Shown here piece after piece: positions 17,433 through 17,835 of a stretch of 64,000 bases of DNA. The DNA is taken from NCBI GenBank assembly GCA_000004695.1, contig CM000154.2:832001-896000 (forward strand). The letters are read 5' to 3'. The translations under genes and the position numbers were made by a program. The stretch comes from Dictyostelium discoideum (Eukaryota). The notes beneath the pieces are model-generated. The model was not told where the DNA came from. It saw only the letters and a program-made list of their open reading frames with translations, and searched no databases. Numbering within the stretch: position 1 is the stretch's first letter; each line of letters begins with the position of its first letter.

Positions 17433-17835
17433 TAGGTATCAGGCATATGGGGTTGGATGGGTGGGTACGCGTCAAGATGTGGTGGTCTTTGGGTGAAGGT
17501 ATGTATTATAAAATTAAAAATATTGTATAAAATAAAATTATTCGGGGCTGGGGGTGGGAACTTCTTCCGGAAGAGGTTGGGGCTAAAAGATGTTTAGACA
17601 TCTCCTCCTCGGGGCGAGGGTTATACGTGAGTCCGGCTCTGCAAAGAGATCGCCCCGAGGAGGAGATGTCTAAACATCTTTTAGCCCCAACCTCTTCCGG
17701 AAGAAGTTCCCACCCCCAGCCCCGAATAATTTTATTTTATACAATATTTTTAATTTTATAATTCATACCTTCACCCAAAGACCACCACATGTTGACGCGT
17801 ACCCACCCATCCAACCCCATATGCCTGATACCTAA
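17433..17835. repeat. near-perfect ~400-bp palindrome (inverted repeat arms ~185 bp, ~34-bp central loop)
   Basis: The left arm taggtatcaggcatatggggttggatgggtgggtacgcgtcaagatgtggtggtctttgggtgaaggtatg...cggggcg matches the right arm cgccccg...cataccttcacccaaagaccaccacatgttgacgcgtacccacccatccaaccccatatgcctgatacctaa. I see one mismatch in the outer 70 nt. Centre near 17635. A poly-A(30) sits immediately 5' of the left arm. Confidence 0.85.

Follow-up and report, generated by a model that had tools for sequence, protein, structure and literature searches.

The formation of palindromes by snap-back priming at short inverted repeats beside a break is established in both yeast and mammalian cells (reviewed in PMC7999016). 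The cases described there include a yeast minichromosome with a 42-bp repeat, CHO cells, and mre11/sae2 yeast, in which the repeats are only 5-9 bp long. In Dictyostelium, an extrachromosomal rDNA palindrome of 88 kb has been mentioned, and a Skipper-derived D. discoideum locus with a stem of ~320 bp has been proposed as a source of small RNAs (both PMC2175303). Unusually long precursors in Amoebozoa have also been interpreted as newly evolved miRNAs (PMC11014262). Here we describe a 404-bp palindrome on D. discoideum chromosome 5, within a 64-kb stretch of DNA that was analysed as a whole (hereafter the window, to which all coordinates refer), and compare it with these systems. We argue that it is probably a young fold-back (inverted) duplication in non-coding DNA, the left arm of which was copied from the end of a tandem array through a snap-back event.

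A repeat search places the arms of the palindrome at 17432-17617 and 17650-17835, each 186 nt long and 99% complementary to the other, with 32 nt between them (the features of the palindrome and of the array are all given on the plus strand). This bears out a preliminary description of the sequence, which had noticed a near-perfect palindrome of ~400 bp; the 34-nt loop given there is the same loop as our 32-nt spacer, counted without the closing A-T pair. The arms are mismatched at two positions (G.G at 17476/17791 and T.T at 17504/17763), one of which is the single mismatch that had been seen in the outer 70 nt. The spacer (17618-17649; GGGTTATACGTGAGTCCGGCTCTGCAAAGAGA) is non-palindromic and contains a small internal CTCT-GCAA-AGAG hairpin. 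When folded as single-stranded DNA, the palindrome region reaches -237 kcal/mol, against -47.5 +/- 4.5 kcal/mol for dinucleotide shuffles (z = -42). No comparable inverted repeat occurs elsewhere in the 64-kb window, where all others are pairs of an A run and a T run with 70-89% complementarity.

The palindrome also stands out in composition, as the preliminary description had remarked of its loop and arms: its GC content is 45% overall, 59% in the inner 75 nt of each arm and 53% in the spacer, compared with 23% for the window. From outside to inside, each arm consists of a 74-nt block of 50% GC, one strand of which bears G-rich motifs, a stretch of 37 nt with 3% GC, and the 75 nt of 59% GC. 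The outer block (17762-17835 in the right arm, mirrored at 17432-17505) is common to the units of the array and contains the invariant cores TACCCACCCATCCAACCCCATATG and AAAGACCACCACATGTTGA. The inner 75 nt (17650-17724, mirrored at 17543-17617) is single-copy in the window apart from its mirror. Nested within it is a small palindrome whose halves, AACTTCTTCC and GGAAGAGGTT, meet at its centre (17559-17578, mirrored at 17689-17708).

On its outer side the left arm ends abruptly against a CTCG (17428-17431), beyond which lies a poly(dA:dT) tract (17399-17427). The preliminary description had placed a run of 30 A residues before the palindrome; the run is indeed present, but it is 29 nt long in the window (24 nt in a second assembly, discussed below) and is set off from the arm by the CTCG. 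The same four nucleotides are repeated at 17608-17611, just before the GGGCGA at the inner end of the left arm. From the 31 A or T runs of at least 25 nt in the window, we estimate that ~0.5% of its positions lie within 4 nt of such a run, and the adjacency of the A tract and the arm is therefore probably not due to chance. Somewhat further upstream, a CUGAUGA-like string at ~17262-17290 (minus strand) was rejected as a hammerhead, as it has CAAA in place of the required GAAA and no Rfam match. A B-box-like 11-mer, GGTTCGATTCT (~17321-17331), was likewise rejected as a tRNA or TRE target: ARAGORN found no tRNA, and the 11-mer lacks matching stems.

The palindrome and the array lie between convergent gene models, taken from the annotation of the second assembly. 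The upstream model encodes 555 amino acids on the plus strand and ends near 16.9 kb, with the palindrome starting ~540 nt past its stop codon, and the downstream model encodes 105 amino acids on the minus strand (~19442-19866). By Pfam, the former has a Sec16 Sec23-binding domain that breaks off at position 43 of 298, while the latter requires two implausibly small introns; both look like gene fragments or pseudogenes. Farther out, the ORF at 9784-11034 encodes an ornithine aminotransferase (OAT) identical to D. discoideum AX4 XP_636989, and the ORF at 29720-31096 is identical to DDB_G0287929. Using the OAT protein and its orthologues as anchors, we fetched the orthologous sites from diverged genomes labelled D. 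discoideum (L005 and L006), from D. cf. discoideum (L008) and from D. citrinum (L009 and L010). In all five, the 3' flank of OAT joins directly to the equivalent of window position ~24232, and the intervening ~13 kb (11170-24231), which in the AX4/AX2-type genome holds gene fragments, the palindrome and the array, is missing from the site. The motif ACAAAA(C/T) is found at both junctions of the segment. Because the outgroups lack it, the segment is a derived insertion in the AX4/AX2-type lineage. The setting is one of jumbled gene fragments confined to AX4/AX2-type genomes, a type of region recently described at the tgrBC locus. The centre of the palindrome (17633) lies near the midpoint of the segment (17700). 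A larger inverted structure spanning the 13 kb was ruled out, as blastn and tblastx comparisons of the two halves of the segment revealed inverted homology in the 404 bp only.

The right arm passes directly into the tandem array (17836-19030), which has a period of 274-282 bp and ~4.5 units of falling quality. Homology between the right arm and the array units is unbroken across 17835 and beyond. The units are 78-90% alike, and each has a run of T29-31 and a conserved C-rich block, with the exception of unit 3, from which the block is missing. The T29-31 run stands where the arms have their 37-nt AT-rich stretch. Neither the inner GC-rich part of the arm nor the spacer has a further copy in the window, and local alignment of the inner segment to the array units was no better than alignment of shuffles, so that homology between the two was rejected. 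A foreign origin of the GC-rich part was also considered and set aside. The spacer has no match in prokaryotic genomes, and searches of prokaryotic genomes, viral contigs and metagenomes with exact 17-22-mers from the GC-rich part gave either nothing or matches confined to 17-32 nt on unrelated contigs (42-72% GC), which we attribute to chance.

A second locus in the same genome retains the arm in another configuration. When the C-terminal part of the ORF at 21664-22638 was used as a protein query, a single relative was retrieved, P0010, encoded on another chromosome-scale record (CM142508.1, locus L018) next to inositol 5-phosphatase 4. The paralogous gene at L018 (83.6% identity) is directly followed by the same array, at 87-93% identity. 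At the end of that array the arm occurs once (...TTAGGTATCAGGCATATGGGGTTGGATGGGTGGGTACGCATCAACATGTGGTGGTCTTTGGGTGAAGGTAAG...AAATTATTCGGGGGCTGGGGGCGGGAACTTCTTC), and beyond it lie GAC, a short stretch rich in A, and (ATT)n. We looked for an inverted copy of the arm at L018 and found none, nor any hairpin. The L018 arm has the same order and orientation relative to its array as the right arm in the window. Because the L018 array ends in one arm with no inverted partner, the right arm is the ancestral one and the left arm an inverted copy added later. Two suggestions in the preliminary description are upheld in substance by these results: a recent foldback, given that the paralogous locus carries the arm single and non-inverted, and a recombination product of the adjacent tandem array, given that the right arm is the proximal end of that array.

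Homology between the two loci does not extend through the whole arm. Only the outermost ~25 nt of the inner GC-rich 75 nt (CGGGGCTGGGGGTGGGAACTTCTTC) is shared with L018, and the homology ends at 17567/17700, 1-2 nt from the centre of the nested small palindrome. No variation occurs in two cores, CATATGGGGTTGGATGGGTGGGTA and TCAACATGTGGTGGTCTTT (24 and 19 nt), across all copies at the two loci. In a diverged D. discoideum (L019) and in D. citrinum (L020), the orthologous site is collinear with L018 on the inositol 5-phosphatase 4 side, and at L019 a P0010-like gene lies on the far side of the array position; neither site has the array or the arm. The two arms of the palindrome differ from each other by 1.1%, compared with 9.3% between the window arm and the L018 arm. 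On the basis of these divergences, the age of the fold-back is roughly one-tenth that of the separation of the two loci, provided that the arms have not been kept alike by gene conversion between them, which could make an old palindrome appear young.

The palindrome thus combines inverted arms around a short non-palindromic spacer with one arm that is collinear with pre-existing sequence, two of the features expected of a fold-back duplication. If positions 17432-17611 are removed, the reconstructed sequence reads A29-CTCGGGGCGA-(32 nt)-TCGCCCCGAG, which places a 10-bp GC-rich inverted repeat beside the A tract. The hairpin formed by this reconstructed repeat has a folding energy of -13.1 kcal/mol (z -3.4), and 1 of 200 shuffles was as stable. 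We infer that this arrangement was the ancestral state. Both the ancestral centre and the CTCG microhomology are reconstructions, because all five related genomes lack the whole 13-kb segment; among the genomes reached there is accordingly no allele of the window locus without the left arm. The microhomology, at 4 nt, is weak on its own.

Poly(dA:dT) tracts are prone to collapse, and the tract at 17399-17427 is our candidate for the site of the initiating event. The starting point would have been a 275-282-bp minisatellite with a short GC-rich flank adjoining its proximal end. Fork collapse or a double-strand break at or beside the tract would have exposed a 3' strand, which could have snapped back on a 6-10-bp GC-rich inverted repeat (CTCGGGGCGA ... 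TCGCCCCGAG) that was already present and bracketed the spacer. Self-templated synthesis of ~180 nt would then have generated the left arm, leaving the 32-nt unique spacer at the centre, and the end would finally have been rejoined to the A-tract side. Because the copy stops after ~180 nt and the chromosome continues, an extra release step has to be assumed, which could be either dissociation followed by end joining or a second template switch. The resulting site is expected to be prone to hairpin or cruciform formation, and would yield a long-hairpin RNA if it were ever transcribed.

Several other explanations could account for such a structure. Palindromes are a classic product of chimeric joins, and the window belongs to a gapped assembly with two runs of 100 N, so that an artefact had to be considered, either a chimeric clone or the inverted joining of one read, the latter raised as a possibility in the preliminary description. 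The comparison with GCA_054883475.1 (locus L007) refutes this reading. Across window positions 13492-20741 this second de novo assembly shows 0 mismatches and 4 indels, 3 of them in homopolymer runs, and it fills the first N gap of the window with 418 bp; although the two assemblies differ in homopolymer lengths and gap content, the 404-bp palindrome is present exactly (100%) in both. GCA_054883475.1 most likely comes from a project that reports de novo Nanopore and Illumina assemblies of ten isolates and the laboratory strain AX2-214 (bioRxiv 10.1101/2025.08.01.668227), and it would appear to be AX2-214 itself. In addition, the spacer is asymmetric, and the two differences between the arms are derived bases in different arms: at 17476 the left arm has a derived G in place of the C found in all array units and in the paralogue, and the right arm has a derived A at 17763, polarised by the array units and L018. 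One substitution per arm would fit an old duplication and would not be expected from the inverted join of a single read. Because the palindrome is identical in the second assembly and carries one private substitution in each arm, we find an artefact of read joining almost inconceivable. AX2 and AX4 derive from one isolate, and the two assemblies show that the sequence is real, not that it is widespread. Nor do we think that the arms belong to a DNA transposon of the foldback or MITE type, or form the inverted ends of an already known Dictyostelium element (DIRS-1, DDT, Tdd or thug), although long near-identical inverted repeats in a lineage-specific insertion, beside other repeats, are what such an element might look like, and the array and arm occur at two AX4/AX2-type loci and at neither orthologous site in the sister lineages. 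The outer flanks (...AAAACTCG and AAATACTG...), with CTCG to the left of the palindrome and AAAT to its right, show no direct duplication, the TA within TTAGG/CCTAA being part of the palindrome; moreover, four array units share the sequence on both sides of the right 'terminus', which is therefore not an element boundary. The second locus is single-armed, and neither the rest of the 64-kb window nor a further ~150 kb from other Dictyostelium loci yielded another copy. Pfam identified no transposase, reverse-transcriptase or integrase domain in seven neighbouring ORFs (only the truncated Sec16), the remaining listed ORFs contain by eye nothing obviously transposon-like, and a search of 5.8 billion clusters returned no protein relative of the array ORF. 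The earlier suggestion of a TIR pair or element terminus is, on these grounds, very unlikely to be correct.

The remaining alternatives concern function. Inverted duplication could have created a young long-hairpin RNA locus, that is, a proto-miRNA or endo-siRNA gene, in which local transcription or read-through would give a 186-bp dsRNA stem cut by the Dicer-like DrnA or DrnB. D. discoideum has Dicer-dependent miRNAs, the hairpin is near-perfect and very stable (-237 kcal/mol), and its inner stem gives sub-threshold matches to generic miRNA hairpins (mir-671, 36 bits against a gathering score of 65). Across the whole window, Rfam found no family at gathering score, and an E-value scan returned only such generic miRNA-hairpin matches, well below threshold. 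The published miRNAs argue against this reading. We mapped the recovered candidates of Liao 2018 and Meier 2016, together with the readable D. discoideum entries of the Edelbroek 2024 table, allowing at most 4 mismatches in 16900-19100 and at most 2 over the whole window, and none of them maps to 16900-19100; among those readable entries, only mir-1176 and mir-1177 are on chromosome 5. No T-run plus G start-site motif lies directly upstream on either strand, the DUSE promoter element and the Class I RNA motif have no match in the region, and the hairpin begins ~540 nt beyond the stop codon of the upstream model. It is also not conserved, being absent from all related genomes compared and from the paralogue, and a single arm is unstructured alone (z -0.39). 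We regard an RNA gene as unlikely. Alternatively, the G-rich block could be a cis-regulatory module, for example one with paired GBF-type G-boxes, in which case the palindrome would have added an inverted copy to an enhancer-like array. The GBF response element has been quoted as KGKGKGK (PMC2257962), and 20 of the 80 matches to this motif in the window lie in 17400-19000, or about two per unit; this heptamer is, however, loosely defined, and matches in repeated copies cannot be counted as independent. In the cores, 4/47 columns are variable, against 53/143 elsewhere (p = 1e-4), but without the degenerate edge unit the figures become 3/47 and 30/164 (p = 0.066), and complex GC-rich sequence slips less than the AT-rich remainder. 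The array is moreover flanked by the 3' ends of convergent gene models that are partly degenerate, and it is absent from the sister lineages. A regulatory module is thus quite unlikely, and the GBF-type G-boxes may be taken as a lead rather than a finding. It is rather unlikely, too, that the locus offers a snapshot of the birth of a small-RNA gene by fold-back within a lineage-specific segment prone to rearrangement, with the hairpin diced into siRNAs or proto-miRNAs against both copies of the array and against transcripts entering them, and with a possible developmental (GBF-type) input from the invariant G-rich core.

If the palindrome is a fold-back duplication, as we favour, it is an ordinary instance of a known rearrangement; nothing about it indicates a selected function or points to a new kind of element. 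What sets it apart is how well it is resolved. Because the paralogous locus keeps the state that preceded the inversion, the parts of a natural Dictyostelium fold-back can all be read from the locus: which arm is ancestral and which is derived, the spacer, and a candidate break site. There is a practical side as well, in that cloning or amplification of the site from standard laboratory strains may prove difficult, and the site may be fragile in them.

Among known systems, foldback transposons and MITEs share with this locus long terminal inverted repeats that come partly from a repeated block, but here there is no target-site duplication, the right terminus is inside an array and the paralogue is single-armed. 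Young plant MIRNA genes reportedly form by inverted duplication, in the model ascribed to Allen et al. in 2004. Like these genes and the long-precursor miRNAs of Amoebozoa (PMC11014262), the palindrome is a long, near-perfect and recent hairpin in a species with Dicer and miRNAs; unlike the former, it duplicates a non-coding repeat rather than a target gene, and it is not among the published ddi-miRNAs that were checked. The rDNA palindrome belongs to the same organism and presumably arose by a related fold-back process, although the present structure is only 404 bp long and chromosomal, and the window contains no rRNA or other Rfam family. Fold-back inversions produced by template switching during replication (FoSTeS/MMBIR and inverted copy-number variants of the ODIRA type) resemble it in that it has an inverted copy, a short spacer and, at one junction, a 4-nt microhomology (CTCG), in a region already made of jumbled gene fragments; the palindrome is far smaller than typical inverted copy-number variants, involves no triplication and shows no sign of a nearby replication origin. 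Known snap-back palindromes differ in being chromosome-scale and associated with hairpin-capped ends, whereas here a copy of ~180 nt was made and the chromosome continues. In their architecture, however, the two agree: both have inverted arms, a short non-palindromic spacer and one pre-existing arm, and in both a short GC-rich inverted repeat, here reconstructed rather than observed, brackets the spacer, with a plausible break site right next to it.

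Each arm of the palindrome carries a G-rich block (window 17443-17494 and 17773-17824), which recurs once in every unit of the adjoining 275-bp-type array. Two G-rich cores, of 24 and 19 nt, are invariant in every copy at both the chromosome 5 locus and the paralogous one. The GBF-type heptamer KGKGKGK is matched 80 times in the window, and 20 of these matches fall within 17400-19000. The G-rich strand of the block can also be read as an ATG followed by 16 codons and GTATGT, an arrangement resembling a short first exon and its splice donor.

Each arm also contains a nested palindrome of 10+10 bp, AACTTCTTCC joined to GGAAGAGGTT, at 17559-17578 and 17689-17708. 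The homology that the chromosome 5 locus shares with its paralogue breaks off no more than 1-2 nt from the centre of this nested palindrome, a hint that an earlier breakpoint was likewise located at a small hairpin.

At the paralogous locus (L018; GCA_054883475.1, CM142508.1), the 275-bp array is present a second time, at positions 2631-3470. It is situated some 2-4 kb short of the record's end and is followed by (ATT)28. In one of its units, an internal deletion (about 3190-3215) takes out the G-rich core. This array adjoins a paralogue of the window gene at 21652-22833, and inositol 5-phosphatase 4 is also a neighbour. No 275-bp array is present at the orthologous site in either diverged D. 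discoideum (L019) or D. citrinum (L020). L018 has an inverted duplication of its own, in which 29-197 and 1499-1690 form copies of ~190 bp lying ~1.3 kb apart; both are proline/serine-rich repeat coding region and match window 22646-22833.

To the left of the A tract, two further features were found. The more distant is an array at 17080-17215 in which the octamer TGTTAATG is repeated 17 times (85% matches); it lies ~200 bp from the tract and has a counterpart in none of the other loci compared. Between this array and the tract lies a unique, moderately GC-rich stretch of 180 bp (17216-17398, minus strand) that includes the B-box-like GGTTCGATTCT and a CUGAUGA-like string. ARAGORN detected no tRNA in this stretch, and there was no Rfam match there either. 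Because it ends in the A29 run, it could be a retroposed fragment.

Sec16-like pieces are found at 16140-16895 and 11455-12040, and have the appearance of a broken sec16 paralogue: one is a Sec23-binding domain that is truncated at 43/298 and has a frameshift after it, and a separate N-terminal-like ORF lies 4 kb upstream. The window also contains two N runs of exactly 100 each (13392-13491 and 53316-53415), the first of which corresponds to 418 bp of actual sequence in GCA_054883475.1 (L007, the window locus in that assembly, 13602-14019). At 10001-11000 and 50001-51000, GC content peaks at 42% and skew is zero, which made these two places look like possible further palindromes; no inverted repeats were reported at either, and they coincide with long ORFs, namely ornithine aminotransferase (9784-11034) and a 688-aa ORF (49632-51698).

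A segment of ~13 kb (11170-24231) is also present in the AX2/AX4-type assembly, whereas five other assemblies lack it at the orthologous site: two of diverged D. discoideum, one of D. cf. discoideum and two of D. citrinum. Each of its two junctions carries ACAAAA(C/T), and its content consists of gene fragments, not transposon genes. The segment is similar to the 'jumbled' lineage-specific regions that have been described at the tgrBC locus (bioRxiv 10.1101/2025.08.01.668227).
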